A stretch of 40,921 bases of DNA from a virus. The stretch lies in UHGV virus genome UHGV-0093931. The stretch is one strand, 5' to 3'. The notes under the pieces are model-generated. The model did no database searches. It had not been told where the DNA came from and worked only from the letters and a program-made list of their open reading frames with translations. Shown piece by piece: positions 1-15,690 of this stretch. Each line of letters begins with the position of its first letter. The first letter of the stretch is position 1. The position numbers were made by a program, and so were the translations under genes.

Positions 1-49
1 TACAGCGTGGTATTGCCCTCCACGCAGTTAACATGACGGGCGTTAGGGG

Positions 50-1363
50 TTAACTTACTGATTTTAATAATCCTCCCGTACTGCTCTCGTGGCTATGGGG
101 CATCAATGGGGCAAAATCTGCCAGCTTCTGATTCAGCATTGCGATCTGCTCTGCGCTGCTGTCAGCCATCCATGCACCGTAAACATTGAACACCATCTGC
201 GCGCTCGCATGCCCCATCTGACTGGCAATAAAACTCGGGTTTGCACCAGCAGATAATGACCAGCACGCATAGGTATGTCGTGACTGGTACGCCTTTCTGT
301 GTCTGATCCCCGCGCGCTTAAGTGCCGCTTCCCATGAGTCGCCTACTGAATCGACCCGGTAGATAAATCCGACCTGCTTACTGCGTCTGACCACATGCGG
401 GTTAAAGACAAATGTACACTCATGGTTCACCGAACGGCCGTACTCACGTAACTGAACTTCAATGTGATGTTTCCTGCCCAGCCTTGTCATCTCAGCCTGA
501 TTTTTCAGGATGCTGATTGCGGGCTGGATAAGATGCACCACTCGATCTGTGCTTGCCTCGGTTTTCGGTAGAGTGAACTCACCAAGTTTCGTATAATTAC
601 GCCTGACGGTAATTGTTCCCGCCTTCAGGTCGATATCTTCCCAGGCCAGGGAGACCAGTTCCCCGTGACGCATTCCTGTGTACACTGCTAATGACCACAG
701 GTTTTTCGTCTGCTGATGCCGGCATGCATCTATCAGGCGAATAAATTCATCACGAGACAGAGGATCTGGTTCTGCCCTGGCTTTTTTCAGAGGCTTAATT
801 CCCTCGAATGGGTTCACCTCTAAATAACCGTGATCTGCAGCAAACTGAAACATTCCGGCCATTGTCGTCATGTAATAGTTCACAGTAACAACGCTTCGCC
901 CTTTTGCCGGAGCTTTGTTTTTCGTCGGATTCTGGTAACCAGTTAGCAAATCTTTCCTAAGATACAGCAATTCCTCTTTGGTTACTGCTGACACCAGGCG
1001 ATTACCTCCGATCCTCGGCACCATATTCCTTGCGACAGACTCATAGCGATTGAATGCGTTCGCGCAGATTTCCATCCGTTTCAGATCCAGCCATTTTTCT
1101 TCAAGTTCTTTCACTGTAATGTCTTTTTTACTTACACCAAAAGCCTTGAGGTTAGGGGAGTCAGGAAACTGGGTTGCATAATCAAAGGTTCCTGTGCGGA
1201 TGGCAAAACATACTGATGTCCGCAGTTCCCCAGCTATCTTCCTGTTCTTAGCGGTGTCAGGGACACCGAGACTTTCCCTGACACGCTTACCTTTAAAATT
1301 AAACCAGATGCGTAATGTGCCACCGTGGTTTTCGACGCCTGTTGGATATGTGACTTTATCCAT
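50..1363 (-). CDS. int: tyrosine-type phage integrase
   Basis: 437-aa ORF at the left end of the prophage; C-terminal region has the His/Tyr signature of tyrosine recombinases (...RHTYACW..., ...VYGAWM...); GGAGG RBS about 8 nt upstream of the ATG at 1361-1363. Confidence 0.9.
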   Translation of the reverse strand: MDKVTYPTGVENHGGTLRIWFNFKGKRVRESLGVPDTAKNRKIAGELRTSVCFAIRTGTFDYATQFPDSPNLKAFGVSKKDITVKELEEKWLDLKRMEICANAFNRYESVARNMVPRIGGNRLVSAVTKEELLYLRKDLLTGYQNPTKNKAPAKGRSVVTVNYYMTTMAGMFQFAADHGYLEVNPFEGIKPLKKARAEPDPLSRDEFIRLIDACRHQQTKNLWSLAVYTGMRHGELVSLAWEDIDLKAGTITVRRNYTKLGEFTLPKTEASTDRVVHLIQPAISILKNQAEMTRLGRKHHIEVQLREYGRSVNHECTFVFNPHVVRRSKQVGFIYRVDSVGDSWEAALKRAGIRHRKAYQSRHTYACWSLSAGANPSFIASQMGHASAQMVFNVYGAWMADSSAEQIAMLNQKLADFAPLMPHSHESSTGGLLKSVS

Positions 1364-1421
1364 TGGTGTTACCTCCAGACGCCCAAGAGCGATACGAGCT
1401 TACCTTTTTCATGGCATCAAA

Positions 1422-1658
1422 TCACCCTGGCTGCTTGCTTTTCATTGAAGCGACCCAGGCATCTACAGCCTTTCTGTTATACATGCACTCACTGGAAGGT
1501 TTAGGATTCCCGTCAGGCGATACGTGGATATACTCCCTCCCAACCATCCAGCATTCTTTTCTGGCCCGGAGGATGGTACCGGGCTTGAGCCCGGTAACCG
1601 CGATAAGAACGCTTTCACAAACCCACTCGTTGGGGGCTAACTGGAAAATATTGCTCAT
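1422..1658 (-). CDS. xis: putative excisionase / small DNA-binding protein
   Basis: 78-aa ORF immediately upstream of and co-oriented with int, the usual position of xis; family assignment from memory only. Confidence 0.55.
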   Translation of the reverse strand: MSNIFQLAPNEWVCESVLIAVTGLKPGTILRARKECWMVGREYIHVSPDGNPKPSSECMYNRKAVDAWVASMKSKQPG

Positions 1659-1696
1659 GGTTATTTATCCATTACCCTGGCTGCACCCAGGGGAAA

Positions 1697-2278
1697 TTAA
1701 AGCTCGCTGCTGGTGGTCGGAATCAATTTCAGCCAAATTGCTGAAACGTATTTTGCCTGATGGCGCGCATCGGCCAGTGCGTTATGTGCGACCCCATCGA
1801 ATGGCATGTCTCGCTTAGGGTCGAAGCCCACAACTCTGCCTAATGTAACGATGGTTCTGACGTCGTGATCATTCCAAAATTGCCACGGGCAATCCTGGCC
1901 GGCGCGCTCATATGCTCCGCGCAATATAACGTTGTCGAAAGTAGCTCCATTGCCCCAAACTTTTAAATATTTAGGGTTATCAGAATGTCGATTAATGAAA
2001 TGGTTCAGTTCAGATAGGGCAGACGATATTGGCAGAGCATCATCAACACAGATTGCTGATCGTGCTTCTGGGCTTTGTCTTAACCACCACAGAATAGTGT
2101 CACCATCCGGCACAGCTCCCTGTTCCATAGCACTTTCAAGGTTAACAGCGGTGTAAAACTCCTGACCCAGTTCACCGCTTTGCGGATCGAAGAACACGGC
2201 ACCAATGGAGACGATAGGGGCATTTGGTTTTTTGCCCATGGATTCAAGGTCGATCATTAAATTGTTCACGTTATACAT
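1697..2278 (-). CDS. putative 3'-5' exonuclease (DnaQ-like fold)
   Basis: ORF 1697..2314; acidic motifs (IDLESMG, ...HNALADA...) resemble DEDDh exonucleases. Start uncertain: ATG at 2276-2278 has AGGAG only 1 nt upstream, GTG at 2267-2269 is an alternative. Confidence 0.5.
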   Translation of the reverse strand: MYNVNNLMIDLESMGKKPNAPIVSIGAVFFDPQSGELGQEFYTAVNLESAMEQGAVPDGDTILWWLRQSPEARSAICVDDALPISSALSELNHFINRHSDNPKYLKVWGNGATFDNVILRGAYERAGQDCPWQFWNDHDVRTIVTLGRVVGFDPKRDMPFDGVAHNALADARHQAKYVSAIWLKLIPTTSSEL

Positions 2279-2942
2279 TCTCCTGTTTCGGCGCTTCTGC
2301 GATGGCTTCATCAATAGCCTGACGAACAGTCATAACCGGGTAATTACTGTCATTGAGCATCATGGCGTTGCGCTGGAAATTAGCGTCAAACTTCCAACCG
2401 TAAGACGTTCCGTAATACTCATTCAGCCTTTTGTTCTGAGCATCAAGCCAGTCGAGGCGCTTTGTATCCTCCGAACCATCCGACGTTATCTGCACTGGTT
2501 GCTCTTTGATGTGCAGACGCGGCTCACCATCTTTCGGCTCAGGCCATTCGCGCTGTTTGTTAACCGCCAGCTTTTCAATCATTGCTTGGGTGATCTGCTC
2601 GTCACTGATACCGGCACGACGTTGCGCATCCCATAACAGGAATTGCATATCAGCCCATTCGCTATGGTCGCCTGGTTCAGCAGCCGCCTCGAGCGCTTCT
2701 TTTGAAAGGTGCTTCAGCGGACCAACTGGGCCGACATCACCGAAAGTGGTCTGTGACCATACTGAATGCTCACGGCGTACCAGCTCGCGGGCAATCACCC
2801 CATCAATCACCTTCAATACATCAGCGAGAATGTATGCTCTGTTCCCGCCGTTTGAGTACTGGGTATCATGCTGCAGGTGTTCGCGTATCTGGTGCAGGCG
2901 ATCGAGTGATACAGGACCGTGCGCCGGGTGGTTAGTTGTCAT
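2271..2942 (-). CDS. phage early protein, possible DUF550-type nucleotide pyrophosphohydrolase domain
   Basis: 223-aa ORF; its stop overlaps the next start; its own start overlaps the upstream stop as ATGA (2939-2942). Domain call is from memory and weak. Confidence 0.45.
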   Translation of the reverse strand: MTTNHPAHGPVSLDRLHQIREHLQHDTQYSNGGNRAYILADVLKVIDGVIARELVRREHSVWSQTTFGDVGPVGPLKHLSKEALEAAAEPGDHSEWADMQFLLWDAQRRAGISDEQITQAMIEKLAVNKQREWPEPKDGEPRLHIKEQPVQITSDGSEDTKRLDWLDAQNKRLNEYYGTSYGWKFDANFQRNAMMLNDSNYPVMTVRQAIDEAIAEAPKQENV

Positions 2943-3232
2943 GGTGTGCTCCAGTTATCTTCAATCGCCACGCCAAGTCGGTGTAGCCAGTCGGCCAGCT
3001 TCAGCATCGCTTCTCGTTCGCTTAATCTTTCTGGAAAGTCGGTAAGCTCGACCATCGGTTTAAACCGACCAAACGCATCGTTCTCAACAATAAGTTTTTG
3101 CTCAAGCGTGGTCTGCTTAACTTTGCTGTGATGCCGTAGCAGGTAAACCGACTTTGATTTTTTGGTTTCTGGGTCGTATTCGTAGGCAGTGAGTATCATC
3201 TGGCTACCGCCGCGATTCGTTCCTCGCCACAT
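2939..3232 (-). CDS. hypothetical phage early protein
   Basis: 97-aa ORF; GGGAGAG RBS about 6 nt upstream of the ATG at 3230-3232; sits in the coupled early-left gene chain. Confidence 0.55.
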   Translation of the reverse strand: MWRGTNRGGSQMILTAYEYDPETKKSKSVYLLRHHSKVKQTTLEQKLIVENDAFGRFKPMVELTDFPERLSEREAMLKLADWLHRLGVAIEDNWSTP

Positions 3233-3235
3233 ATC

Positions 3236-3775
3236 TCACTCTCCCTTCACGCCAATGCCAGCGAGCCAGTTACGAACGCTGATAAACTCAGCATTCCTAA
3301 ATCCGCTTTTGACGTAGATGAATGGCAGTCGTAGGTTGTGGCCATTACATGCTAGGTAGTCTTTGCATCCCTGTTCGGTGAAACAGCAGGTAACGAAATC
3401 ATCAATTTCTTTCAGGGCAACTCTGCGCCATTTTTCAGGTGGTTCACGGAAGTTTTCATGGAGCAATTCAAGGCGCATTCGTTGGCGCTCATTAGCTTCG
3501 TTACCATCTTCATCAATCCAAACGATGCGGTCATAGTCGTAATGAGCATCAACAACGATTTCGCGCTTTTGGTAAACGCAAAACATCGGGTCGGATGTAA
3601 TACGGTTATCCTGCGATAAAATGTTTTTGCCGATGACACTGAACGATTCTGGCGCGGATTTTGCCTCCAGTTCTGCGATAAGTGCCATGGCTTCACTTTC
3701 CTTCAAAATTACGGAGTCATAGCTTTCAATCTGCTTTTTGATTTTGGCAATCAGCACTTCAAGTGATTTGCTCAT
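3236..3775 (-). CDS. hypothetical phage early protein
   Basis: 179-aa ORF in the early-left operon; no recognisable motif. Confidence 0.55.
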   Translation of the reverse strand: MSKSLEVLIAKIKKQIESYDSVILKESEAMALIAELEAKSAPESFSVIGKNILSQDNRITSDPMFCVYQKREIVVDAHYDYDRIVWIDEDGNEANERQRMRLELLHENFREPPEKWRRVALKEIDDFVTCCFTEQGCKDYLACNGHNLRLPFIYVKSGFRNAEFISVRNWLAGIGVKGE

Positions 3776-4026
3776 TGTGCAGTTCCCTGTCTTGCTCTAT
3801 TCAACAGCTGGTTAAACATCATGGTTAGGCTGTTACTACACCCAAACGGCATATCGTTAACACGGTATGTTGGAATGCCCTTGCGAACACCAGACTTCAC
3901 GATCCGGCCGGTGCCATAGAGTTGCGATAATGCGCCAGCGACCGCGGGTGTCTTTTTGTTCATACCTTTGGCGATTTCACCGCTGGTGGTATTCGGATGA
4001 GCCTGGAGATATTCAAATACGGTCAT
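3772..4026 (-). CDS. small putative winged-helix DNA-binding protein
   Basis: 84-aa ORF; its start at 4024-4026 overlaps the upstream stop (4023-4025) as ATGA; helix-turn-helix-like segment ...TSGEIAKGMNKKTPAVAGALSQL... Confidence 0.5.
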   Translation of the reverse strand: MTVFEYLQAHPNTTSGEIAKGMNKKTPAVAGALSQLYGTGRIVKSGVRKGIPTYRVNDMPFGCSNSLTMMFNQLLNRARQGTAQ

Positions 4027-4190
4027 GGCGTTTTACCTTTACGTTCCTGTTCCAGTTGCACCAGAGACTCTTTTAATGCTGCGAACGCAGCGTCCAGTCT
4101 GGTGGCGACTTCGCGCATAAGCGGTGCATGCTTTGGTGGTAATTCAGCAATGGAGGCAAAAGCCTCCGCTACGAGCTCTTTTACCTTCAT
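4023..4190 (-). CDS. small hypothetical protein (55 aa), not in the ORF track
   Basis: Hand translation of the minus strand gives MKVKELVAEAFASIAELPPKHAPLMREVATRLDAAFAALKESLVQLEQERKGKTP; its ATG (4188-4190) overlaps the upstream stop (4187-4189) and its stop overlaps the next ATG, both as ATGA, like its neighbours. Confidence 0.5.
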   Translation of the reverse strand: MKVKELVAEAFASIAELPPKHAPLMREVATRLDAAFAALKESLVQLEQERKGKTP

Positions 4191-4726
4191 GTGGCGCATT
4201 GGCGCAGCTCCATCAGTTCGTTAAAGCGATTCATGAACAGGCCATAGGCTTGACCAGGACGGAGAGGGATAACCTGAACGAGATCAGAGCAGGGAATACC
4301 TTCGAGAATTTCCCACTTCGAACCGTCATCGATTTCCAGATCACGGCGCTCGGTAGCTAACATGGTGAGATCGGCATATTTCACGACAGCAGCTTGTTCA
4401 AGAGAGATACCGAATTTAAAGCGGATAAGACCATCAACATAAGTTTCCATGCGCTGGTAGTCAGGCAGCAATGCTTTGAGTGGTGCCGGAATGTCCTGGC
4501 AATATGCCTCCGCAGCGTCGTGCATCAACGCTTCAAAGGCGAACTCTGGCGGAACAATCTGGCTAACAAGCACAGAGTGCTGAGCCACACTGTAAAACTC
4601 TGGTAGATGCCCGGCGAATCGACAGATGTTGGAAAGAGCTGTCGCGATATCTTCAACATCGATATCGTCGATTGTGGCGGTCAGGTAGTTAAATTTTTTA
4701 CCGGATAATGTTTGAATGTAGCTCAT
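4187..4726 (-). CDS. HD-domain phosphohydrolase (YfdR-like 5'-deoxynucleotidase)
   Basis: HD motif ...LMHDAAEAY... in the translation; likely start MSYIQT at 4724-4726 with GGAG RBS (the track ORF extends to 4753). Confidence 0.7.
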   Translation of the reverse strand: MSYIQTLSGKKFNYLTATIDDIDVEDIATALSNICRFAGHLPEFYSVAQHSVLVSQIVPPEFAFEALMHDAAEAYCQDIPAPLKALLPDYQRMETYVDGLIRFKFGISLEQAAVVKYADLTMLATERRDLEIDDGSKWEILEGIPCSDLVQVIPLRPGQAYGLFMNRFNELMELRQCAT

Positions 4727-4910
4727 CGTTTTCTCCATATTGGCGCGCTGCACCGCGCAGATTTTGGTTGCACGAATCCCTCGCCGGGTGGCGATAATTA
4801 ATGGAATTACGCTTCAATAAATCCCCGCGGTGCCGGGGATTTAATGCAGAGCAATTAGGCTTTAAAGTTACCGATGAAAGTTTCCACTGATTCACCGTCG
4901 AACTTGCTGA

Positions 4911-5681
4911 TCAGCAGATCGCGGAATTCATTGGCGATCTCTTCTTCCTGGGCTTCAAGTTGGACGATGCGCAGAACAAAGCGGGTTCATCGCTGGTCAG
5001 CAGGCTGTTACGCAAGCTAAAACGTCGTTCGCCCAGACCTTCATACGGCACACATTTGAATTCAAACGCCACAGGCATTACGTCTTTGCTGCTTGCTTCA
5101 ACGCTTTGCATCAGCGATTTTTTACCAGCGAAATCACCAGTTTCATGGTCCTGCTGGGTTGCTTGCTGAATAGTGATACGACGCACAGCCTGAGCTGCCT
5201 GGGAAATCTGCATCGTATTGCCATCAGCATCAAACGCCAGCAGGTAATCGCTCCAGTCTTCCAGCCATTCGGCGATTTGCTTTTGCTTCAGACGTTGACC
5301 ATCGATCTGCAGTAACGCGCGGAAGGGCGCGGTTTTCTTCAGGGTGATCGAAGCAACGTTATCGGCGTGACCGGGATTATCCAGGTTGCCGATGTTGAAC
5401 ACTGAACGGGCGGTCATGTTGTCAGCGTCAATGAAGCAACGTGCTGGCTCACTGTCGCTGGCGTAACCTTTAGAATAACGTGCGAAATCGTCAATACTGG
5501 TTGTTGTCATTGCACCACGGAAGCGGAAACGCTCCAGAGAAAAGCGCTCAAGGCTTTCAACGCTAGTACCATCTGGCAGCAATGCGGTCGGGCAAGCCAG
5601 GCCATGAATATCATTCAGGTGGTAGCCAGAAAGGACCAGGTCTTTTACCTGCTGAAATGTACCGCTGTCTAACTGAGACAT
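4911..5681 (-). CDS. YfdQ-like (DUF2303-type) prophage protein, apparently frameshifted near the 3' end
   Basis: 256-aa ORF; a protein-like continuation (...[39 protein letters not shown]) is open in another frame down to a TAA at 4855-4857. Family call is from memory. Confidence 0.6.
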
Positions 5682-5737
5682 AGAAATTCCTTATTAACTG
5701 ATGATCGAAGTGGTATCAGTGAGTTTGTTGTTGCGGA

Positions 5738-6109
5738 TCACTGAGCCGCTTTAAGCTTTCCATCCACCGCGCCAGTGATCCCGAACAACTGACCCTGATC
5801 TTCCTGCAGGATGGTGAGCTTCCCGCCTTTGTTGACCCACATCGGGGTTTCGGTTGTGTCCTCTTCGGAGGCTTTACCACGCGGTGTTGGGGTGCTGTAG
5901 TTCAGCTTGTGCTTGATCTTGACGCGCTTCTCTTCAACGGAATTACCCATGCGCTCAAAATCAAATGTGAGGACTACTTTGCCTTTGTTGCCGTTGTTCA
6001 GAACGCCAAGCGCGGTGGTATTAAGTGCTGCCGCGATTTTGTTCATGAACACGCCGGCATCCAGTTCGCCAAGAAAATCTGGCACTACGGTCATGCGGTC
6101 ATTACTCAT
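5738..6109 (-). CDS. hypothetical prophage early protein (YfdP-like position)
   Basis: 123-aa ORF; GAGGG RBS upstream of the ATG at 6107-6109; first clear gene after the noncoding region downstream of the putative pL. Confidence 0.6.
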   Translation of the reverse strand: MSNDRMTVVPDFLGELDAGVFMNKIAAALNTTALGVLNNGNKGKVVLTFDFERMGNSVEEKRVKIKHKLNYSTPTPRGKASEEDTTETPMWVNKGGKLTILQEDQGQLFGITGAVDGKLKAAQ

Positions 6110-6270
6110 GGTTTTACCCTCGTTAAGGCGGCTGCAACCGCCGAACTTTCTCCATACACAACAGAGAAGAGCACCTGCATTGGTCGGCGGCTTGCAGGGA
6201 CCGCTTTCTTTTTGCCCGGGTGGATTGGGTTATGAGCCCGTCGCCCGGTGATGCTCTTTTCTGTTGCGTA

Positions 6271-6340
6271 AAAAGGGCGGTACCGAGGTAGAACATTATC
6301 TTCGTCCCCCTTGCATAAGGTTGAAGGCCCAGGTACCGCC
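6271..6340 (-). terminator. candidate terminator-like structure on the leftward transcript
   Basis: Plus-strand GGGCGGTACC (6276-6285) pairs with GGTACCGCC (6332-6340) around an inner CCTT-ATGC-AAGG hairpin; on the minus strand the structure is followed by a U-run (plus-strand AAAAA at 6271-6275). The loop is large for a classical intrinsic terminator. Confidence 0.3.
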
Positions 6341-7289
6341 AAGACTACACACATGGAACTACGGTTATCACAGTCCTCAGCGTGATTTGGTTGTGGTTGC
6401 TGGTGCTGAACTCCAGCTCAGTGGCGCGGTGTTTCAATATCGTAACCGCCCGTTCCATCCGCGTTCGATCAGTCCGTATGCTCGCTTAGAACGTTTCGCC
6501 TGCTTATCTTTTCTCAACCGTTTGACGGTCAGCCCCGCCATTCACCACAACGAAGAGAGCACTGCCGGTATCCGAATTGAACGGACCTTTTCGTTGCCCA
6601 TCACCGCTATCTGTATAGCGGTGGCAGGGATTGAACCTGCCGTTATGCCTTGCTCGTCAATGCTCTCATCGTTGTGTGCTGACCTTACAGCCAGCATGGT
6701 TGGAATGAAGACGCATCACGACTTTTCACCAACTGGGCGGGATCACCATGAAAGAGCCGCCCCTTTAGCCTTTCATGCTCCCCATCTTTCTAGGTAGTCA
6801 ATGCCTCCAGTTGGGCATACAACCTTCGGTTATCGCTCCGTCGTCAGCGCCACTCTCCAGGACATTTATAAGGACCGTCTCCAAGTGGTAACTCTTCCAG
6901 TCCCGGTAAGCATCCTGCGAGATGCTTACCATGACCGGCTGATCTTCCCTGAAAAAGGCTGGCGGTTACCGGACAAACGGGAAAACACCGGGCCGCCAGA
7001 ACAGGGAGTTACTTGTTATTGCTTTGGCCTGCTTTTAACCACATCAGGCGCGGTGGTAGGTATCTTCGGGCGGGGTGCTAAGGGGGTGATTAGCCCTTGC
7101 CCTTAACACTCCTGCTGGTTTTGGTATTCCTGGCTTGGGTATCGCCACCAGCTATAGGAATTTGACTACGAGTTGCGGTTAATCAGGCCGCGCCTCTGTT
7201 ACCCCTCCCGAAGACACCTGTCAGCGAATCATCCGGTTATTCATATGCCACCGGCGGCTACTTCGTGGGCGTCCTGCCTGTTCGCTGTT

Positions 7290-7381
7290 GATGAATAAAA
7301 TCTAACTTAACTTAGCTTTTAGATCAAGAAAAAACACCAAACTATTCTTAGCTTGATGTTAAGAGGAAGGTTAGAGGTGGG
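7290..7381 (-). promoter_or_regulatory. putative OL/pL region
   Basis: AT-rich segment just downstream of cI; minus strand reads TTGATC-17 nt-TAGATT; the 14-mer CTAACTTAACTTAG resembles the CTAAGCAATCTTAG palindrome in the cI-cro intergenic region. Confidence 0.45.
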
Positions 7382-8008
7382 TTAAAGCTCGTACTGAACG
7401 CCTTTGACAACGCCGATGATCAGGCAATTACCGTTAATTGAAATGTTTGGATAGCGTGGATTTAAGGGAACTAAGAACTTTTGAGGCCCATCGATGACAA
7501 GTTTTTTTACAGTAGCCTCGTTTGTCCCATCAAGCCTGGCTACGACTATCTTTCCATGAAGTGGCTCTGCATCTGGATCTACTATGACTGTTGCCCCTTC
7601 AGGGATTGTCGGGAGGCCATTAGGGTTTGTCATCGAATCACCTTTAACCTCCAATGCAAAGGAGCTATCCCCTATGCGGAGTGATGTCTCTATCCACTTA
7701 TCTACTTCGCTGAAAACTTCTGCTGCTTTACATTCTGTAAACTGTCCAGCCTGAACCCAGGATATCACCGGAATCCTTCGCATCTTGGTTATCAGATTGC
7801 CTTCAAATTCAGTGCCATAAAGTATGTAATCAATTGATGTGTTGAAATACTTTGCAAGTTTCGCAAGTGACTCGCCTCCAGGCACATTAACGTCTTTTTC
7901 CCAATACCCAACCGCCACATCACTAACACCGCAGAACTTACCCAGTTCTTTCTGCGAGGTTTTGGTTATGCGCCTGAGAGCTTTGATGCGCTGACCGACA
8001 GTTTCCAT
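7382..8008 (-). CDS. cI: CI-type repressor (XRE-family HTH with LexA-like S24 peptidase domain)
   Basis: 208 aa; N-terminal HTH (...TSQKELGKFCGVSDVAVGYWE...) and C-terminal autocleavage-type domain; divergent from a cro-like gene. Confidence 0.9.
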   Translation of the reverse strand: METVGQRIKALRRITKTSQKELGKFCGVSDVAVGYWEKDVNVPGGESLAKLAKYFNTSIDYILYGTEFEGNLITKMRRIPVISWVQAGQFTECKAAEVFSEVDKWIETSLRIGDSSFALEVKGDSMTNPNGLPTIPEGATVIVDPDAEPLHGKIVVARLDGTNEATVKKLVIDGPQKFLVPLNPRYPNISINGNCLIIGVVKGVQYEL

Positions 8009-8110
8009 TTGAACACCATAAATAAATTAAAAGGCTAAGCAATCTTAGTTTTTATTGACCAAAGTTAGATTGGTTATTAATATCTAATCAAACTTAGCTA
8101 AGGAGGCGTT
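8009..8110. promoter_or_regulatory. putative OR operator/promoter region (pRM/pR)
   Basis: Palindromes CTAAGCAATCTTAG (8035-8048), TAGAT-N11-ATCTA (8066-8086) and CTTAGCTAAG (8093-8102); plus-strand TTGACC (8055-8060), 17-nt spacer, TAATAT (8078-8083) ahead of cro. Confidence 0.55.
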
Positions 8111-8338
8111 ATGACAACCGATGATATTGAAAACTACTTCGGCAGTACTGAGAAGGTTGCCGAATTTTTTGGAATCACAAGCGAGGCTGTTTACCAGTGG
8201 CGTAATAGAACTGGTCGCCTTATCCCAAAAGGGCGTGCAGCTGAAGCAGCATATCGAACCGGGGGGAAATTGGTTTTTCATCCCGACCTTTACGAAAAGC
8301 GTAGCGATGCTTCAGTAAAACTCAAACCACAGGAATAA
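8111..8338 (+). CDS. cro: Cro-like repressor (P22 Cro-like HTH)
   Basis: 75 aa; ...FGSTEKVAEFFGITSEAVYQWRNR... HTH; divergent from cI across the operator region; AGGAGG RBS. Confidence 0.8.
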   Translation: MTTDDIENYFGSTEKVAEFFGITSEAVYQWRNRTGRLIPKGRAAEAAYRTGGKLVFHPDLYEKRSDASVKLKPQE

Positions 8339-8348
8339 GGGGGGAGCT

Positions 8349-8900
8349 GTGGGTAACGAACCTATTTGGAAAGTCGAACGTCAGCCAGCCTGGCTGGTGG
8401 CGGCGATAAAAAAAACGATCACCGATCTTCCTGGTGGTTATGCCGAGGCGGCGGAATGGTTGGGCGTGACAGAGAACGCATTGTTCAACCGCCTTCGTGT
8501 TGACGGCGACCAAATCTTCCCGCTGGGCTGGGCAATGGTTTTACAACGTGCTGGTGGTTCAACTCATATTGCTGATGCCGTTGCGCGCCATTCTCAGGGC
8601 GTATTTGTACCGCTGGCAGACGTTGATGATCTGGATAACGCCGATATAAACCAGCGCCTGATGGAGTCCATTGAATGGATAGGTCGTCATTCTAATTTTG
8701 TACGTAAAGCCACGGCTGATGGGGTAATTGACGCAGATGAGCGTGCTCAGATTGAGGAAAACAGCTATCAGGTTATCGCGAAGTTCCAGGAGCACGTAAC
8801 GCTTCTTTATCGAGTTTTTTGTGTCGCTGAAAAGAGTGACGCCCGCGAGTGTGCAGCTCCGGGCGCCTTGGCGAACAACTCTTCGAGTATGGAGAAATAA
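8349..8900 (+). CDS. putative CII-like early regulator (phage 186 CII/CP76-like)
   Basis: 183-aa ORF directly after cro, GTG start with GGGGGGAG RBS; family assignment from memory only. Confidence 0.5.
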   Translation: MGNEPIWKVERQPAWLVAAIKKTITDLPGGYAEAAEWLGVTENALFNRLRVDGDQIFPLGWAMVLQRAGGSTHIADAVARHSQGVFVPLADVDDLDNADINQRLMESIEWIGRHSNFVRKATADGVIDADERAQIEENSYQVIAKFQEHVTLLYRVFCVAEKSDARECAAPGALANNSSSMEK

Positions 8901-8905
8901 TCCGC

Positions 8906-9232
8906 ATGAGCAGTTTAACGGCTTTTAACCGTCTACCGCAACTCAGGATGATCCCGGTTTCGGGTACTCCGTTGTTTCGGTATGAACGCAGATTATCAAA
9001 CCGCTGGGTTCCGTGTAACCACAGTAGGGCGGTTTCAATTGTGGGGGTCTATAACCGGAGGGCAAAACGCCTGTGCGCGAACTTAACCGAAGGTTCAAAG
9101 ACCACCGCGGAGTGTCTGTCCGTGTTATCCGCTGGGAACCAGAAACACAACGCGTTATCTACCTGCGTGATGGCTACCCGCACGAATGCTTCAGCCCACT
9201 TGAGCATTTCAGGCAAAAGTTCAGGGAGATAA
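8906..9232 (+). CDS. hypothetical protein (uncertain; an alternative overlapping 59-codon frame exists)
   Basis: ATG at 8906 with GGAG RBS; the S/R/N-rich translation is not convincingly protein-like. An alternative frame 9073..9252 reads more like a protein (see findings). Confidence 0.3.
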   Translation: MSSLTAFNRLPQLRMIPVSGTPLFRYERRLSNRWVPCNHSRAVSIVGVYNRRAKRLCANLTEGSKTTAECLSVLSAGNQKHNALSTCVMATRTNASAHLSISGKSSGR

Positions 9233-9241
9233 CGGACGATC

Positions 9242-10099
9242 ATGAGCACTAAATTAACCGGCTACGTATGGGATGGTTGCGCGGCGTCGGGCATGAAGTT
9301 GTCTAGTGTCGCGATCATGGCTCGCCTCGCTGATTTCAGCAGCGATGAGGGAGTGTGCTGGCCGTCCATTGAAACTATTGCTCGCCAGCTTGGCGCAGGG
9401 CCGAGCACGATCAGAACGGCAATCGCAAAGCTTGAAAAAGATGGCTGGCTCACGCGTACACAGCGCCGTAATGGTAACCGTAATGCGTCGAACGTGTACC
9501 GCCTGAATGTGGCGAAACTTCAGGCTGCCGCATTTTCTCAACTGTCAGATTCTGACACGTCAAAATCTGACGCATCAAATTTTGACGCCTCAAAAACTGA
9601 CCCGTCGAAATCTGGCAAAAACGGCGGTTTTGACCCGTCAGAATCTGGCGGGGATCCGTCAGTAAAATCAAAACAAGATCCACAAGTAACTTCAAAACCC
9701 TCTTGTCCGGTTGCGGCGCAACCAGACCCTGAAGTCGTGATTACTGATCAGGCAATTTTGGTTCTGACCCATTTGAACCAAATCAGCGGATCCCGGTATC
9801 AGAAATCAAAAACATCCCTGGAGAACATCCGTGCCCGACTGCGTGAGGGATACAGCGTTGCAGACCTGCAACTTGTTATCGACCTGAAGCATGAGCACTG
9901 GCACGAGAACGACGAGCAGTACCAGTACATGCGACCGGAAACGCTGTTTGGCCCGAAGAAATTCGAGAGCTATCTGCAAAGCGCTACCCGCTGGGAGCAG
10001 AAGGGACGGCCTAAACGTGCTGACTGGGGAGCGAAAAAGCGCGATGTGATGGCTTTTGGTCCGGTTGAAACAACGATTCCAGAGGGGTTCAGAGGATGA
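9242..10099 (+). CDS. phage replication initiator (O-like, N-terminal wHTH)
   Basis: 285 aa; N-terminal DNA-binding region; a low-complexity middle (SDSDTSKSDASNFDASKTDPSKSG) is encoded by the iteron repeats; first gene after the immunity/CII block. Confidence 0.75.
   Translation: MSTKLTGYVWDGCAASGMKLSSVAIMARLADFSSDEGVCWPSIETIARQLGAGPSTIRTAIAKLEKDGWLTRTQRRNGNRNASNVYRLNVAKLQAAAFSQLSDSDTSKSDASNFDASKTDPSKSGKNGGFDPSESGGDPSVKSKQDPQVTSKPSCPVAAQPDPEVVITDQAILVLTHLNQISGSRYQKSKTSLENIRARLREGYSVADLQLVIDLKHEHWHENDEQYQYMRPETLFGPKKFESYLQSATRWEQKGRPKRADWGAKKRDVMAFGPVETTIPEGFRG
9544..9651. repeat. iteron array (putative replication origin) inside the initiator gene
   Basis: Five tandem 15-bp units at 9544, 9559, 9574, 9589 and 9604 (gtcaGATTCTGACac, gtcaAAATCTGACgc, atcaAATTTTGACgc, ctcaAAAACTGACcc, gtcgAAATCTGGCaa) and a sixth copy at about 9637-9651; AT-richer DNA follows. 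Confidence 0.7.
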
Positions 10100-10977
10100 C
10101 GTTAAACAAATATTGCCAGGCGCTGGTGGCACTACGTAGCCAACCAGCCCACGAATTGAAAGAAGTTGGCGATCAGTGGCGGACACCGGACCTGCTTTTT
10201 TGGGGCATTAATGCGATGTTCGGCCCGCTGACGCTGGATCTCTTTGCTGATGACGATAACGCTAAGTGCCCTGTGTGGTACACCGCCGAAGATAACGCGC
10301 TGGTACAAGATTGGGCGGAAATGCTGGAATCAATCGGCGGGGCCGCATTCGGTAATCCACCATATAGCCGTTCGCAGTACCACGAGAAACAGGCGATAAC
10401 CGGCATGACCCACATCATGGATCGCACAATGGAAATGCGTGAAAAGAGTGGGCGTTACGTGTTCCTCATTAAAGCGGCGACAAGTGAAACATGGTGGCCG
10501 GAAGATGCCGATCACATCATGTTTATCCGCGGTCGTATTGGCTTCGATCTCCCTGTGTGGTTTGTTCCTGCTGATGATAAGCAGAAGCCCACTGGTGCTT
10601 TCTTTGCTGGTGCTATTGCAATCTTTGATAAGTCATGGCGCGGAGAGCGTTTCAGCTACATCAGCCGTACCGAACTGGAAGAAAAAGGGCGGGCGTTTAT
10701 GGCTTTGGCTCAATTCGCCGTTGGTAAAGAGCAAACAATTGCAATGCAGGCAGCTAAGGAACCAGCAGCAACACCGGAAACTGAGTCACGAATTTGGCCT
10801 CTCGAGGTTGGTCTGGTGTTTAACCAGGTGGAAGGCGTTGATGTATTGAGCGAGGCCCAGCAGAACAAACTGAAAGCCAACATCAATCAACTCTGGCTGG
10901 AACGAACGGCCACCAGCGAAATTATCACAATTGCGCGTGGTCTTGTTGGCAGCATGCAGGGGGTAACCCATGCGTGA
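10096..10977 (+). CDS. phage N6-adenine DNA methyltransferase (Dam-like)
   Basis: 293 aa; ...WRTPDLLF... and catalytic ...GNPPYS... motif typical of N6-A methyltransferases. Confidence 0.8.
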   Translation: MTLNKYCQALVALRSQPAHELKEVGDQWRTPDLLFWGINAMFGPLTLDLFADDDNAKCPVWYTAEDNALVQDWAEMLESIGGAAFGNPPYSRSQYHEKQAITGMTHIMDRTMEMREKSGRYVFLIKAATSETWWPEDADHIMFIRGRIGFDLPVWFVPADDKQKPTGAFFAGAIAIFDKSWRGERFSYISRTELEEKGRAFMALAQFAVGKEQTIAMQAAKEPAATPETESRIWPLEVGLVFNQVEGVDVLSEAQQNKLKANINQLWLERTATSEIITIARGLVGSMQGVTHA

Positions 10978-12904
10978 GATTATCGTTGATAACTTTGCTG
11001 GTGGCGGTGGTGCATCAACGGGTATTGAACTGGCGATCGGACGCAGCGTGGATATTGCGATCAACCACGACGAAAACGCCATTGCGATGCACAAGACGAA
11101 CCACCCTGACACACTGCATTACTGTGAATCCGTATTTGACGTGGATCCGGTAGCCGCCACCGGCGGCAATCCTGTTGGCCTGGCATGGTTTAGCCCGGAC
11201 TGCCGACACTTCTCAAAGGCCAAAGGCGCAAAGCCTGTGAAAAAAGAGATACGCGGTCTGGCCTGGATCGTTCTGCGTTGGGCACTGGCGAAGCGACCGC
11301 GCGTGATGATGCTGGAGAACGTGGAAGAGTTTAAAACGTGGGGACCGCTGCTGGCCGATGAAATGCGTCCAGACCCTGCCCGCACTGGCGAAACATTCAA
11401 TGCTTTTGTCGGCATGCTTTCCACTGGCATTCCTGCCGATCACCCGGCACTGGCGGAGGTCTGCGAATTTCTTGCTATTGATCCTGGCAGCACGCAGGCC
11501 AAACAGCTGGTGGAAGGGCTTGGATATGATGTTGATTATCGCGAACTGCGCGCGTGTGATTACGGCGCGCCGACGATCCGCAAACGCTTCTTCATGGTTA
11601 TGCGCTGCGATGGTTGCCCTATTCAGTGGCCTGTTGTAACCCATGGGGATCCCAAGTCACTGGAGGTGCAGAGCGGCAGGCTGATGCCATGGCGTACCGC
11701 TGCGGAATGTATCGACTGGAATGTTCCGGCTCTGTCCATCTTCGACCGCAAAAAACCGCTGGCAGAGAACACTCTGAAGCGGATCGCACGCGGCATACAG
11801 CGCTTTGTTATCGAAAGTGCGTCGCCGTTTATCGTGAAGTGCAACCACACGAGCTCAAAAAATGCGTATGACGCTTTTCGCGGACAGTCACTGAATGAGC
11901 CATTACAGACCATTACTAAAAAACTCGGCTACGCGTTAGCCGTTCCACACCTTACAAAATTCCGCACTGGCGCAACCGGGCAGCCCGTTACCGAACCTGT
12001 TCCGACGGTAACCGCTGGCACGTCAAAACGCCCGGGCGGGAACGGGCATGCTCTCGGGATTGTTGAGGCTGCATTGACACCATTCCTGGCGGGTAATGGT
12101 GGTAGTGAATACCAGGCTAAACCGCGCCCGCTGAATAAACCTGCTCATACCATTCTGAAGCAATCCCGAGCCTGTCTTGTTGCGCCAGTGATAGCCCGCC
12201 AGTTTGGGGCCAGCGTCGGCCACCGTGCAGACGAACCGAGCGCAACCATCACCGCTGGTGGTGGCGGTAAATCTCAACTGGTAACGCCTACGCTGATTCA
12301 GATGGGTTATGGCGAACGACCTGGACAAGAACCGCGTGTGCTGCGACTGGATAACCCGCTGGGGACCGTTACTGCAGGCGGAAATAAATTTGCGACGGTG
12401 AGCGCATTCCTGGCGAAACACTACGGCGGTAACTATACGGGGCCGGGTGTCAGTATGGATGAACCCGCGCATTCAGTGACCACTGTCGACCATCATGCGG
12501 TAGTTGCCTCTCATCTGGTGAAACTGCGTGGAACATGCCGCGACGGGCAACGCCTTGATGTGCCAATGCCAACAATCACTGCTGGTGGCCAACACGTGGG
12601 TGAGGTACGCACATTTCTCGAGACGTATTGCGGGGAAAGTGACGATGAATGGCTGGTAACGATCGATGGGGTTAAATACCAGATCGTTGATATCGGAATG
12701 CGCATGTTGCAGCCGCATGAACTCTACAAAGCGCAGGGCTTCCCGGATGGTTACGTTATTGATCAGGACTACCGTGGAAATCGCTATGCAAAAGATAAGC
12801 AGGTAGCCCGCTGCGGTAATGCGGTACCACCACCATTCGCCCGGGCGCTGGTTGAGGCAAATCTTCCGGAACTGTGTGCAGTGCAACAGCAGGAGGTGGC
12901 ATGA
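10970..12904 (+). CDS. DNA (cytosine-5)-methyltransferase with large variable region
   Basis: 644 aa; motif I FAGGGG, ENV motif (MLENVEEF) and C-terminal ...RCGNAVPP... (motif X); the catalytic Cys is in an atypical ...SPDCRHFS... context; long insert between conserved blocks. Confidence 0.8.
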   Translation: MREIIVDNFAGGGGASTGIELAIGRSVDIAINHDENAIAMHKTNHPDTLHYCESVFDVDPVAATGGNPVGLAWFSPDCRHFSKAKGAKPVKKEIRGLAWIVLRWALAKRPRVMMLENVEEFKTWGPLLADEMRPDPARTGETFNAFVGMLSTGIPADHPALAEVCEFLAIDPGSTQAKQLVEGLGYDVDYRELRACDYGAPTIRKRFFMVMRCDGCPIQWPVVTHGDPKSLEVQSGRLMPWRTAAECIDWNVPALSIFDRKKPLAENTLKRIARGIQRFVIESASPFIVKCNHTSSKNAYDAFRGQSLNEPLQTITKKLGYALAVPHLTKFRTGATGQPVTEPVPTVTAGTSKRPGGNGHALGIVEAALTPFLAGNGGSEYQAKPRPLNKPAHTILKQSRACLVAPVIARQFGASVGHRADEPSATITAGGGGKSQLVTPTLIQMGYGERPGQEPRVLRLDNPLGTVTAGGNKFATVSAFLAKHYGGNYTGPGVSMDEPAHSVTTVDHHAVVASHLVKLRGTCRDGQRLDVPMPTITAGGQHVGEVRTFLETYCGESDDEWLVTIDGVKYQIVDIGMRMLQPHELYKAQGFPDGYVIDQDYRGNRYAKDKQVARCGNAVPPPFARALVEANLPELCAVQQQEVA

Positions 12905-13287
12905 AACTTGTGCTCCCGTTCCCTCCGAGCGTGAACACTTACTGGCGCGCCCCTAACAAGGGGCCGCTGGCCGGTCGTCACCTCATTAGCGCTGATGGTC
13001 GTAAATACCAGAGCGCTGCCTGCGTGGCGATCATTGAGCAATTACGACGTCTCCCGAAGCCATCGACTGAACTGGCAGCGGTAGAAATCACTCTGTACCC
13101 GCCGGATGCGCGCCGTCGGGATATCGATAATTACAACAAAGCCCTGTTTGACGCGCTGACGCATGCGGGTGTCTGGGAAGACGACAGCCAGATTAAGCGC
13201 ATGCTGGTGGAATGGGGACCCGTTGTGCCGAAAGGTCGGGTAGAGATAACGATCAGCAGATATGAACCGGCGGGTGCAGCCGCCTGA
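12901..13287 (+). CDS. rusA: RusA-family Holliday junction resolvase
   Basis: MKLVLPFPPSVNTYW... N-terminus and overall length typical of RusA; ATG at 12901 overlaps the upstream stop (ATGA). Confidence 0.85.
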   Translation: MKLVLPFPPSVNTYWRAPNKGPLAGRHLISADGRKYQSAACVAIIEQLRRLPKPSTELAAVEITLYPPDARRRDIDNYNKALFDALTHAGVWEDDSQIKRMLVEWGPVVPKGRVEITISRYEPAGAAA

Positions 13288-13300
13288 TATGGAGAAAAGT

Positions 13301-13987
13301 ATGAGCCAGTTAATCGTGAATGGTGTAGTAACAATGTCCAGCCGTGATATTGCGGATCTGGTTCAAAGTAAACACAGTGACGTGAAACGCTCGGCTGAGC
13401 GTCTTGTTGCTGCGGGAATTTTAACCGCGCCGTTGGCGCAGTTCGATTTTGAGCATAACGGTAATGTGTACCAGGAGTATCGTTTTAACAAACGCGACTC
13501 TCTGGTGATTGTTGCCAGACTGTCTCCTGAATTTACCGCCGCGGTCGTCGATCGCTGGCAGGAACTGGAAGAAGGGCAGAGTGTCAGTGTTCCCCGCTCA
13601 TTGCCGGAAGCGCTTCGCCTGGCTGCTGATTTAGCCGAGCAGAAAGAGCAACTGACCATCCAGCTGGCAGCCGCGGCGCCAAAAGTGGAGTTTGTTGATC
13701 GTTATTGCTCTGCAAAAGGCTCCATGTCATTCCGGCAGGTAGCCAAATTGCTCAACGCAAAAGAAACTGAGTTTCGTCTGTTCCTTATTGAACGCAATAT
13801 CCTGTATCGCCTCGGCGGCACACTTACCCCCATGGCGCAGCACATTTCCGCGGGAAGATTTGAAGTTAAGACGGGAACATCGAGCACATCCAATCACGCA
13901 TTCAGCCAGACGCGTTTCACTGCCAGGGGAGTACGCTGGATTGGTGGTTTGTGGGCTGAACATATTGCAGGGGGGCAGGCGGCGTGA
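13301..13987 (+). CDS. Rha-family phage regulatory protein / antirepressor-like
   Basis: N-terminal ...SSRDIADLVQSKHSDVKRSAERL... typical of Rha-type domains; start taken at MSQLIV (13301). Confidence 0.7.
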   Translation: MSQLIVNGVVTMSSRDIADLVQSKHSDVKRSAERLVAAGILTAPLAQFDFEHNGNVYQEYRFNKRDSLVIVARLSPEFTAAVVDRWQELEEGQSVSVPRSLPEALRLAADLAEQKEQLTIQLAAAAPKVEFVDRYCSAKGSMSFRQVAKLLNAKETEFRLFLIERNILYRLGGTLTPMAQHISAGRFEVKTGTSSTSNHAFSQTRFTARGVRWIGGLWAEHIAGGQAA

Positions 13988-14979
13988 GGGCTTTGTTAAC
14001 TCCTGAAGTCGCCCATCGCATGGGGATTGTGTTGTTTCGTCCCGGCGCGGAACTGATGCACCTCTTTATGCGCGGTCGCGTTCTGCTCGAGCCTGAACCA
14101 GAAGAAATGGCGTCATTCAGTACAGGAGCTGTTCCCGCCGCCATTCAGCCGCTGGCTGATGATCCGGTAATGCGGCAGGTCTTCGGGAATGAGCGGGTTA
14201 TTCAGCGTGCCGGCGGGCTTCCTTCCCTTGAGCAATGGTTGAGTAATCGATTTGAATGCCAGTGGCCACATTCAACGTGGCACGACAAGAACTTCACAAC
14301 AATGCGGCACCCACCAGGAAGTATTCGCCTGTGCTGGCATTGCGATCACACTTTGTCGGGGCAGCATACCGAACAGCTTGCAGGTATAGCGGCAGGAAAC
14401 CTGGTATCCTGGATTCTGGAAGTCATTCTGCGTGATTCTGGTTTTCCCGAGTCGCATATCCTGACGCTTCCGGAACTGTGCTGGTGGATGGTCAGAAACG
14501 ACCTGGCTGATGTTATGCCGGAAAGCGTTGCGCACAAGGGGCTACGCCTTCCGGATGAGAAGATCCGCTCGGTCATGAGGGAAAGCGACATTGTGCCTTC
14601 CGCTTCTGCAACCAGCCTCGTGCAGGAGAAGGCGAAGAAGATCCTCACGCTCTCTGTTGATCCGGAATCTCCAGAATCTTTCATGCTCAGGCCAAAGCGA
14701 CGCCGCTGGATAAATGAGACGTACACCCGCTGGGTTAAAACACAACCCTGTGAGTGTTGCCGACGGCCAGCAGATGATCCGCACCATATCGTAGGGCATG
14801 GTATGGGTGGTACAGCAACAAAAGCCCATGACCTCTTCGTGATCCCTCTGTGCAGAGAGTGCCACGACGAGTTACACGCCGATGTACCGGCATTCGAGCA
14901 GAAGCATGGTACGCAGCTTGAGCTGCTACTGCGTTTTATGGATCGGGCGCTGGCGATCGGCGTAATTGCGAAAGCTTAA
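13984..14979 (+). CDS. DUF968-family prophage protein (HNH-like Cys/His cluster)
   Basis: 331 aa; C-terminal ...CECCRRPADDPHHIVGHGMGG...CRECHDELH... metal-binding cluster as in YdfU-like proteins; GTG start overlapping the upstream stop. Confidence 0.7.
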   Translation: MRALLTPEVAHRMGIVLFRPGAELMHLFMRGRVLLEPEPEEMASFSTGAVPAAIQPLADDPVMRQVFGNERVIQRAGGLPSLEQWLSNRFECQWPHSTWHDKNFTTMRHPPGSIRLCWHCDHTLSGQHTEQLAGIAAGNLVSWILEVILRDSGFPESHILTLPELCWWMVRNDLADVMPESVAHKGLRLPDEKIRSVMRESDIVPSASATSLVQEKAKKILTLSVDPESPESFMLRPKRRRWINETYTRWVKTQPCECCRRPADDPHHIVGHGMGGTATKAHDLFVIPLCRECHDELHADVPAFEQKHGTQLELLLRFMDRALAIGVIAKA

Positions 14980-15000
14980 GTGTATGGAGCGCAAAGAAGC

Positions 15001-15690
15001 ATGAATCAACAAGACCTGAATTTTGTCAGAATAGAATTGCGCCGCGCGCTACCTGACCTCTCTGGGGGAACAAAAGGGCAGCTTGAGGCTTTCAGTGAAC
15101 ACCCACCAGCAGATAAAAATGCCACCCCGCGCCGTGGAATTCATCTCGTCGAACTCGAAGGAGATAAGGGGCCACGCTTTGTTAACTCGCTTTCCGCGCC
15201 ACTGTATGTGCTGGAAACACGCAGCCGCCGTAGGCCAATGCCGCCGATAAAAGATGCGGAATTTGAGTCAGCGCCGTGGCGTAGGGCAGTGTCCGCGCTT
15301 AGTGGATACCAGCAGGCCTGGTTGCGGTACTGTTACGGTTTTGACCTTAGCTATAAGCACCAGGTGATGATGTGTGAATACGTCTGGAAAACTTATCAGA
15401 AATGCCTGGGTGATAATTCCCTTCAGGAGCGCGTAGTAAAGAAACTGATTGGCCTGGTATGGCTGGCAGGGCAGGAAATTGCCGCAACCAGAAATAATGA
15501 AACCTATAAAGACTATGCTGGTGCAGCGTTGGCCCGCATGGTTAGCGTTGACCGTTCGACATGGTTGCGTGTCTATTCAGGGCACTGGGCTGGGTTAAAG
15601 GCCGCTTTTACCCAGCTTGATGAATCTGCGCTGGCCATGGCTCTTGAATACTATGAGGAAGAAGACGCCCTCAAAGTGGCAGAAATGTGA
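15001..15690 (+). CDS. putative late-gene antiterminator (Q-like)
   Basis: Last gene of the early-right operon, directly upstream of a promoter/terminator module and the lysis cassette; family call by position and memory. Confidence 0.5.
   Translation: MNQQDLNFVRIELRRALPDLSGGTKGQLEAFSEHPPADKNATPRRGIHLVELEGDKGPRFVNSLSAPLYVLETRSRRRPMPPIKDAEFESAPWRRAVSALSGYQQAWLRYCYGFDLSYKHQVMMCEYVWKTYQKCLGDNSLQERVVKKLIGLVWLAGQEIAATRNNETYKDYAGAALARMVSVDRSTWLRVYSGHWAGLKAAFTQLDESALAMALEYYEEEDALKVAEM

Follow-up and report, generated by a model that had tools for sequence, protein, structure and literature searches.

A predicted replication origin built of palindromic 15-bp iterons inside the initiator gene of a lambdoid prophage

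The virus genome UHGV-0093931 was analysed as one stretch of 40,921 nucleotides (nt), referred to below as the window. The subject of this work is an array of short tandem repeats inside a predicted replication initiator gene of this genome, together with the DNA directly following the array (Table 1). Upstream of the initiator gene lie genes for an integrase and a cI-type repressor on the minus strand and then cro, cII-like and DUF4222 genes on the plus strand; downstream there are genes for Dam, a large Dcm-like methylase, RusA, an antirepressor, DUF968 and Q. This is the setting of a cro/cII early-right operon in a lambdoid prophage. The window, early regions (1-15690) included, was found to contain no gene for a helicase, helicase loader or primase, which leaves the initiator as the only recognisable replication protein of the prophage.

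Two Pfam domains of the initiator score above their gathering thresholds, HTH_36 at amino acids (aa) 23-70 (E 4.5e-12, 46.0 bits, cut-off 25) and Phg_2220_C at aa 174-246 (E 1.3e-23, 83.2 bits, cut-off 27), a combination that fits the HTH_36 + Phg_2220_C phage proteins (TIGR02220-type). Besides HTH_36, the N-terminal domain (N-domain) gives weak Pfam matches to GntR, MarR and DnaD_N, the last of these being below threshold. The PHROGs label for the protein is “primosomal protein / replication initiation O-like”, and PHROG 1701, “DnaD-like helicase loader”, matches its C-terminal domain (C-domain) with E 4.7e-8. A relaxed Pfam scan detected no DnaB_2 in the C-domain, profile searches of PDB sequences returned no match for it, and a Foldseek search against PDB, with a poor single-sequence AlphaFold2 model (mean predicted local distance difference test score, pLDDT, of 55) as the query, gave no match at E<0.4. 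A protein identical to the initiator is found in Salmonella, E. coli and Citrobacter; database names for it are “GntR family transcriptional regulator” and “conserved phage C-terminal domain protein”. With its first 512 nt, which comprise the N-domain and the array, the gene matches 1,850 of 5,426 complete E. coli genomes.

A first-pass annotation had placed five to six tandem 15-bp repeats with a TCTGAC-like core at 9544-9651, encoding a low-complexity linker and followed by AT-richer DNA, and each of these features was recovered. Tandem Repeats Finder reported positions 9544-9614 with a period of 15, 4.7 copies and 75% matches, a 30-bp reading being the alternative, and a repeat search set the copies in register at spacings of 15, 15, 15, 15 and 33, i.e., five abutting units and a distal sixth one that together occupy nt 303-410 of the gene. 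Every unit has a palindromic 13-bp core close to GTCAGAWTCTGAC, and unit 1, GTCAGATTCTGAC, is a perfect palindrome. The ideal site is the palindrome TCAGA-W-TCTGA; with such dyad symmetry within each repeat, the site is of the dimer type. The logo of 549 units from the 108 distinct homologous arrays described below gives (G/A)TCA(A/G)A(A/T)TCTGAC plus two nucleotides as the family consensus of the unit, which includes the TCTGAC core. The spacing of 33 bp to the last site recurs in L17 of phage phiP27, and the spacer codons GGT (67/69) and TTT (106/106) are fixed across homologues. The peptide encoded by this region, LSDSD TSKSD ASNFD ASKTD PSKSG KNGGF DPSES, is a low-complexity linker; residues 103-162 have no secondary structure in the AlphaFold model mentioned above, which is a weak one.

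The array as a whole also has dyad symmetry. Over 9542-9651, units 1-2 are 90% complementary to the end of the spacer and the distal unit, so that the distal unit and units 1-2 form an inverted repeat, and single-stranded DNA or RNA of the array could fold into one long hairpin (z = −5.5). Extrusion of a cruciform or hairpin at the predicted origin is conceivable.

The clustering of the repeats is not random. When the 40.9-kb window was searched on both strands with the 13-mer GTCAAAATCTGAC at up to three mismatches, 20 matches were obtained against 11.8 expected, and ten of them fell within the 106 bp of 9544-9649, where about 0.03 would be expected by arithmetic. Codons 99-140 were also re-coded with the window's own codon usage in 20,000 trials. 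The re-coded peptide yielded 0.17 +/- 0.40 matches at up to two mismatches, with a maximum of 2, while five were observed. Thus, the DNA repeat is far stronger than the peptide repeat demands.

Homologous loci taken from genomes and from IMG/VR amounted to 139 distinct genes and 108 distinct arrays. They represent many genera of Enterobacterales and span 67-100% in N-domain identity. In each of them the array keeps the same codon register; it contains 4-10 units, most often 6. Within the unit, the serine of codon 2 is encoded by TCA in 492 of 549 cases (90%) and by TCG in the remaining 10%, with no other serine codon used; elsewhere in the same genes TCA makes up 16% of serine codons. At codon 3, lysine is always AAA (366/366), glutamate GAA (69/69) and asparagine AAT (43/43), while codon 4 is TCT for serine in 78% and codon 5 GAC for aspartate in 84%. 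In the distal unit, the codons TCA GAA TCT are invariant where the amino acid is kept (74/74, 96/96 and 103/105). The segment after the array is more rigid still, its codons being essentially invariant wherever the amino acid is conserved; the consensus reads TTT GAC CCG TCA GAA TCT GGC GGG GAT CCG TCA GTA AAW TCA AAA CAA GAT CCA TCA GAT AAA. Normalised synonymous entropy over 96 homologues is 0.11 in the distal segment versus 0.73 in the N-domain (Mann-Whitney p = 7e-8). Variation is seen in the number of units, in the first codon of every unit, at codons 0, +6, +8 and +9 and in the distance between the boxes; particular bases are fixed.

An overlapping gene was considered as a source of this constraint and rejected, because none of the other five frames stays open throughout the 108 arrays: four are interrupted in every array, and the antisense frame of an 81-aa open reading frame (ORF; 9450-9695) is open in just 52 of them. 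Taken together with the re-coding control, the lack of a conserved alternative frame shows that it is the nucleic acid, rather than the protein or an overlapping gene, that is constrained. We conclude that 9544-9698 is under purifying selection at the DNA level, independent of the encoded protein, and that the constrained element extends from ~9544 to ~9698 and comprises the abutting sites, the spacer, the sixth site and an A-rich stretch of low stability with GATC sequences.

The last part of this element has a GC content of 0.40 over 9650-9699, with an A-rich skew, in a window with a GC content of 0.515. The least stable 40-mer of the gene, 9658-9697, has a GC content of 0.33 and lies at the 98.7th percentile of the window; the least stable 30-mer starts at 9663, and GC is 0.30-0.33 across the least stable 30- and 40-mers. 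Two D-P-S motifs follow the last iteron, and their aspartate is GAT in 108/108 and 99/99 arrays, which makes the two GATC sequences invariant; the aspartate of the D-P that precedes the last iteron is GAC in 73/73. Valine in the A/T-rich segment is GTA in 107/107, and A or T occupies the third positions there also in codons whose amino acid changes. The GATCCGTCAG box pair is also present in the lineage labelled L264, where the iterons differ; its downstream boxes are GATCCGTCAG(T/A), and the distance from box to box is 24 nt in the window, 21 nt in L264 and 15 nt in a further lineage, L189. With its boxes kept and its iterons changed, L264 suggests a generic role of the boxes in the origin, with specificity residing in the iterons. 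A Dam homologue is encoded within 2.5 kb in 88 of the 139 related loci, and the phage Dam gene downstream of the initiator may be linked to the GATC boxes, a link that is only suggestive.

Table 1. Features of the predicted origin, the initiator gene and its surroundings in the window
Feature	Position	Strand	Remarks
pR-like σ70 promoter candidate	8055-8083	+	TTGACC-17-TAATAT, 9/12, from a consensus scan only; upstream of cro
Replication initiator gene, 285 aa	9242-10099	+	winged-helix N-domain, low-complexity linker, Phg_2220_C C-domain
Coding region of N-terminal winged-helix domain, aa 1-96	9242-9529	+	presumed iteron-recognition module
Five abutting 15-bp iterons	9544-9618		starts at 9544, 9559, 9574, 9589, 9604
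18-nt spacer AAAAACGGCGGTTTTGAC	9619-9636		A-tract + T-tract dyad; puts the sixth site 33 bp after the fifth
Distal sixth iteron GTCAGAATCTGGC	9637-9651		most conserved unit in the family
A/T-rich low-stability segment	9652-9698		proposed unwinding element and Dam/SeqA target
Conserved GATC box GATCCGTCAGTA	9653		
Conserved GATC box GATCCACAAGTA	9677		
Mosaic junction (…KPSCPVAAQPD…)	9694-9753	+	N-domain + origin module meets interchangeable C-terminal modules
Phg_2220_C domain	9761-9979	+	Pfam; presumed adaptor to host replication machinery
Phage Dam (N6-adenine, GATC) methyltransferase gene	10096-10977	+	Pfam Dam, E 5e-44; directly downstream of initiator gene

The first-pass annotation had called for a comparison of the iterons with the specificity domains of initiators in related phages. 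As can be seen from that comparison, distant HTH_36 initiators have differing palindromic repeats in the same place, right after the winged-helix domain. With 15-bp periods, the repeats are GTTCAGAWTCTGAAC in Trabulsiella L073 (67% N-domain identity to the window), GTCAAnnnTTGAC in L264 (65%), TCAGAATCTGAA in phiP27 L17 (62%), GTCAGATTYTGAC-like in L189 (49%) and ATTTCGAACAnTCG in the L176 lineage (42%); they are GGGGCAGGAGCTGCCC at 21-24 bp in O of Stx phage 24B (40%), GGTCAAATTCCGACC at 17-22 bp in Vibrio phage p42 (39%) and GTGCAGGAGATTCAC at 21-24 bp in SfV orf39 (35%). Across these lineages, the sequence of the array changes as the winged-helix N-domain diverges. One candidate rule, in which a residue of the winged-helix “wing” sets the outer base of the iteron (NRNASN/NRNTSN vs GAC/GAA), was tried and fails across the family.

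Palindromic arrays of their own with a 15-bp period were located at L264:1837-1990, L176:1795-1960, L189:1801-2025, L073:2800-2960 and L163:1851-2023. Boxes of the GATCC(G/A) type occur in the downstream A/T-rich stretch of L264, L189, L073 and phiP27 L17, with L189 having four GATC sites at 15-nt spacing. These arrays and boxes point to an origin design common to the HTH_36 superfamily.

The IMG/VR collection was additionally scanned with a pattern of two adjacent units of the window type, which retrieved at least 197 matches in at least 120 loci. Among the matches listed, 193 of 197 come right after an N-domain ORF read from the same strand. Three others arise from reading the palindrome on the reverse strand, next to an N-domain gene of the opposite strand, and the last belongs to an array at the edge of its locus, with a truncated upstream gene. 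The matches listed from 120 loci thus include no array that clearly lacks an N-domain, and the idea of orphan arrays (satellites or decoys without an initiator) was dropped for these matches.

The gene is a mosaic. With “O” genes of the SfII/SfIV type the similarity covers nt 1-486 of the gene (~82%), with near-identical E. coli prophages nt 1-512, and with Salmonella phage 118970_sal3, whose N-terminal part is unrelated, nt 453-858 (91%). The C-domain of SfIV is 38% identical to that of lambda O (E 1e-27), and sister phages combine the same N-domain with a lambda-O-type C-domain and a downstream ORF of 164 aa (SfIV_42-like, in 49 of 139 loci). By these matches, the N-domain and the array form one module that is joined to either a Phg_2220_C or a lambda-O-type C-domain, as is classical for lambdoid phages, in which an origin-specific N-terminal module is combined with an exchangeable adaptor. 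The module is present in the isolated phages SfII, SfIV, Eeyore, YeP1 and phiNP, and phiNP of Citrobacter rodentium replicates on induction (bioRxiv 10.1101/2025.01.01.630987).

On this evidence, the 9544-9698 region is likely to be the replication origin of the phage, with predicted initiator-binding iterons located in the initiator's own gene. The origin prediction made in the first-pass annotation is supported at the sequence level by the frozen synonymous sites, the co-variation with the N-domain, the exclusive association with N-domain genes and the lambda-like position. One can envisage the following course of events. Upon derepression, rightward early transcription, for which the candidate pR-like promoter would drive the operon cro - cII-like - DUF4222 - initiator, would lead to synthesis of the initiator. 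Its N-terminal winged-helix domain, probably as dimers, would bind the TCAGA-W-TCTGA palindromes and build a nucleoprotein complex, which would melt the adjacent A/T-rich segment at ~9658-9697. The Phg_2220_C domain would then bring in the host helicase and primosome directly, since no loader, helicase or primase is encoded in the window. The two GATC sites would make the unwinding region a target of Dam methylation and SeqA. The proposed binding, melting, helicase recruitment and Dam/SeqA action are inferred from analogues, namely lambda O with ori-lambda and gp15 of phi80.

In lambda, the annotated iterons are at nt 349-433 of the O gene, nearly the same gene position as that of the window array. 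In both cases, dyad-symmetric repeats within the initiator ORF follow the DNA-binding domain and code for the linker between the domains, DNA that melts easily is located toward the C-terminal part, the gene comes after cro/cII in the operon of rightward early transcription, and the N-domain with the origin is the specificity module to which an exchangeable C-domain adaptor is attached. The likeness to the lambda ori-within-O arrangement pointed out earlier therefore holds for the arrangement, and the repeats do lie within an initiator ORF; the term “O-like” is justified by analogy only, and the likeness does not extend to the C-domain, which is of the Phg_2220_C family, or to a P-like loader gene, which the window lacks. 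The N-domain is HTH_36 in the window protein and all its relatives and Phage_rep_O (PF04492) in lambda O: the window protein gave no Phage_rep_O match at E<=0.01, whereas lambda O and phi80 gp15 gave 6e-36 and 6e-25, and BLASTP against lambda O revealed no similarity (E 0.74). Membership in the lambda O family was rejected, with no Phage_rep_O, O-type C-domain or downstream P-like loader found in the window. The geometry differs as well, as lambda has four iterons of 18-19 bp spaced ~20-24 bp, and the window six sites with abutting 15-bp units. There is no GATC in the lambda origin, in contrast to two conserved ones in the window, and the window has no counterpart of the partner gene P, the next genes being those for Dam and the Dcm-like methylase. 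The window array thus follows the logic of lambda with a different protein family and a different geometry. That an initiator gene can contain the origin is a principle familiar since lambda; our result extends it and overturns nothing.

Gene 15 of phi80 (JX871397) has four annotated gp15-binding repeats at nt 365-441, inside the gene, and A/T-rich DNA with GATC follows them; unlike the window protein, gp15 belongs to Phage_rep_O, its repeats are of the GGGAA/TTCCC type at 21 bp, and the P-like gene 14 comes next. The “replication protein O” of SfII and SfIV combines iterons of the window type, in the same codon register, with a lambda-O-type C-domain. L17 of phiP27, orf39 of SfV and O of 24B share the N-domain family and have palindromic arrays of their own in the same place; the gene after L17 is DnaC-like, and that after 24B O encodes a large helicase-type P. 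Plasmid iterons are direct repeats of 17-22 bp, roughly in helical phase and usually outside the rep gene, with DnaA boxes. The window resembles the iteron plasmids (RepA, pi, TrfA) in having a winged-helix initiator, repeated sites and an adjacent A/T-rich region, and differs from them in that its sites are palindromic, spaced by 15 bp, inside the gene and without DnaA boxes. At the oriC 13-mers of E. coli and in oriR of plasmid P1, conserved GATC sequences are found in or beside the unwinding or initiator-binding region. The same holds for the origin of V. cholerae chromosome II (PMC2865523). In the window, GATC beside the presumed unwinding region would likewise imply Dam/SeqA control; the difference is that there are just two GATC sequences, in an A/T-rich coding segment with no DnaA boxes nearby.

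In the records inspected for phages of this family, SfII, SfIV, phiP27, SfV and 24B among them, no iterons or origin are annotated. The SfIV genome paper does not mention iterons (PMC3851460), nor are these iterons mentioned in the SfI genome paper, and no description of them was found in the open-access literature searched. The Stx-phage “P27” that has been studied biochemically (PMC7466680) has a lambda-type O, which differs from the HTH_36 gene L17 of AJ298298.

Several observations weigh against the origin interpretation or limit it. The A/T-rich tract is a modest one, its GC content of 0.33 over 40 bp corresponding to −46.7 kcal/mol compared with −43.0 kcal/mol for the tract of lambda, and no DnaA or IHF consensus site was found near the array (DnaA box with up to one mismatch, 9300-9900). 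The connection with Dam is loose, given that just 88 of 139 loci have the homologue and that SfV has dam and no GATC in the array region. For the helicase-recruiting role of Phg_2220_C, the PHROG label is the sole evidence, and the literature searched yielded no binding or origin-activity data for the family. With a spacing of 15 bp, or ~1.43 helical turns, neighbouring sites are ~154 degrees apart by arithmetic; as the sites of lambda and phi80 are about two turns apart, the geometry of the lambda O-some cannot be simply transferred to the window array. Finally, Salmonella phage SI8 has a single unit, and the array is hence not universal in the wider family.

SI8 (L166:1438-2070) is P22-like and encodes an HTH_36 protein close to 24B O with one copy of GGGGCAGGAGCTG, followed by a primase/helicase gene. 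Either SI8 is exempt from the array rule or its origin is arranged differently.

Other functions of the repeats have to be weighed against that of an origin. The winged-helix protein might autoregulate or block transcription by binding inside its own gene, with replication starting elsewhere or otherwise. Initiators often autoregulate too, the GntR-family name attached to the identical protein in databases agrees with such a role, and matches to HTH_36, GntR and MarR are typical of regulators. Yet the gene stands at the place of the replication genes in a lambdoid early-right operon and the window has no other replication gene, the same N-domain and array are fused to a lambda-O-type C-domain in SfII and SfIV, the matching PHROG families are replication initiators, and the conserved A/T-rich flank with its GATC boxes is a feature of origins and not of operators. 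The 13-mer scan, moreover, placed no copies of the site near the promoter region. We therefore regard a purely operator function as improbable, though the sites may possibly serve as operators in addition.

A further explanation is that the region is a recombination “linker” at a module junction that has spread horizontally in recent times, with no selection for a site acting in cis. Conserved junction sequences promote exchange in lambdoid phages, and this gene is indeed mosaic, with junctions just downstream of the region. Hitch-hiking of this kind is difficult to reconcile with conservation that is specific to particular sites rather than blanket, and with an array sequence that is not uniform and tracks the divergence of the N-domain; we consider it quite unlikely.

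The constraint could also act on RNA, a long hairpin of the array in the mRNA controlling translation, processing or stability of the initiator message. The segment 9530-9700 does fold to −51.3 kcal/mol compared with −31 +/- 3.7 kcal/mol for shuffled sequences, i.e., with the z of −5.5 given above. Such a hairpin, however, follows automatically from the global self-complementarity of a tandem array of palindromes; 9652-9698, which is equally constrained, is unpaired in the fold; 24B and SfV, with non-abutting repeats at 21-24 bp, keep the pattern of repeats after the N-domain; and no Rfam family matches anywhere in the window. An RNA element is thus very unlikely to account for the data. Least credible is the view that a flexible repetitive linker rich in Ser, Asp and Lys is all that is needed and that the DNA periodicity is a by-product of slippage and unequal crossing-over, for, while the encoded linker is of low complexity and probably disordered and the copy number does range between 4 and 10 in steps of 15 nt, in keeping with slippage, synonymous codons are conserved by position across genera next to an N-domain with free synonymous sites, aspartate has the codon GAC in the iterons but GAT in the boxes, the A/T-rich part keeps A/T third positions while its amino acids vary, and the re-coded peptide reproduces almost none of the DNA repeat.

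Some neighbouring features deserve mention. The initiator gene is followed at 10096-12904 by two methyltransferase genes, the first Dam-type with a C-terminal extension of ~90 aa and the second encoding a 644-aa protein whose match to C5-cytosine methylase is confined to the N-terminal ~120 aa; in phage Eeyore, a PAPS-reductase-like fusion occupies the corresponding place. A σ70-like promoter candidate on the minus strand at 8992-9019, in the gap 8900-9073 between the cII-like and DUF4222 genes, is antisense to the cII-like gene and has the place and orientation of lambda pO/oop and of the annotated M3 RNA of phi80 (JX871397); the scan revealed no terminator. Far from the initiator gene, the perfect 12-bp x4 tandem repeat AGCAGGAACAGC (26358-26405) lies in a small ORF (26217-26439, plus strand) and encodes the EQQQ-repeat tail of a 74-aa protein. 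Just before it, the terminator-like hairpin GCGGCCTTCGGGCCGC follows a 403-aa ORF (24965-26176).

Going beyond the window, we tentatively suggest, as a speculation that may well prove wrong, that the HTH_36 initiators represent a large undescribed class of origins in enterobacterial and vibrio phages. Such origins would combine abutting 15-bp palindromic iterons as specificity determinants with a lineage-independent GATCCGTCAG pair in an A/T-rich unwinding element gated by Dam and SeqA, often with a phage Dam gene alongside. In the Phg_2220_C version, one phage protein would recruit the host helicase without a phage loader, and the out-of-phase 15-bp spacing of the sites would imply a helical or alternating initiator filament instead of a wrapped O-some of the lambda type.

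The predicted origin at 9544-9698 and its cognate initiator domain provide a concrete candidate for a very common prophage replication module, which is widespread yet poorly annotated, no record that we inspected having an origin annotated. As each HTH_36 lineage has its own palindromic array, the family offers natural pairs of initiator and iteron specificity, useful for the study of recognition, of replication incompatibility between prophages and of cross-activation in hosts that carry several prophages. The conserved GATC boxes, in turn, point to a possible control of phage origin firing by methylation.

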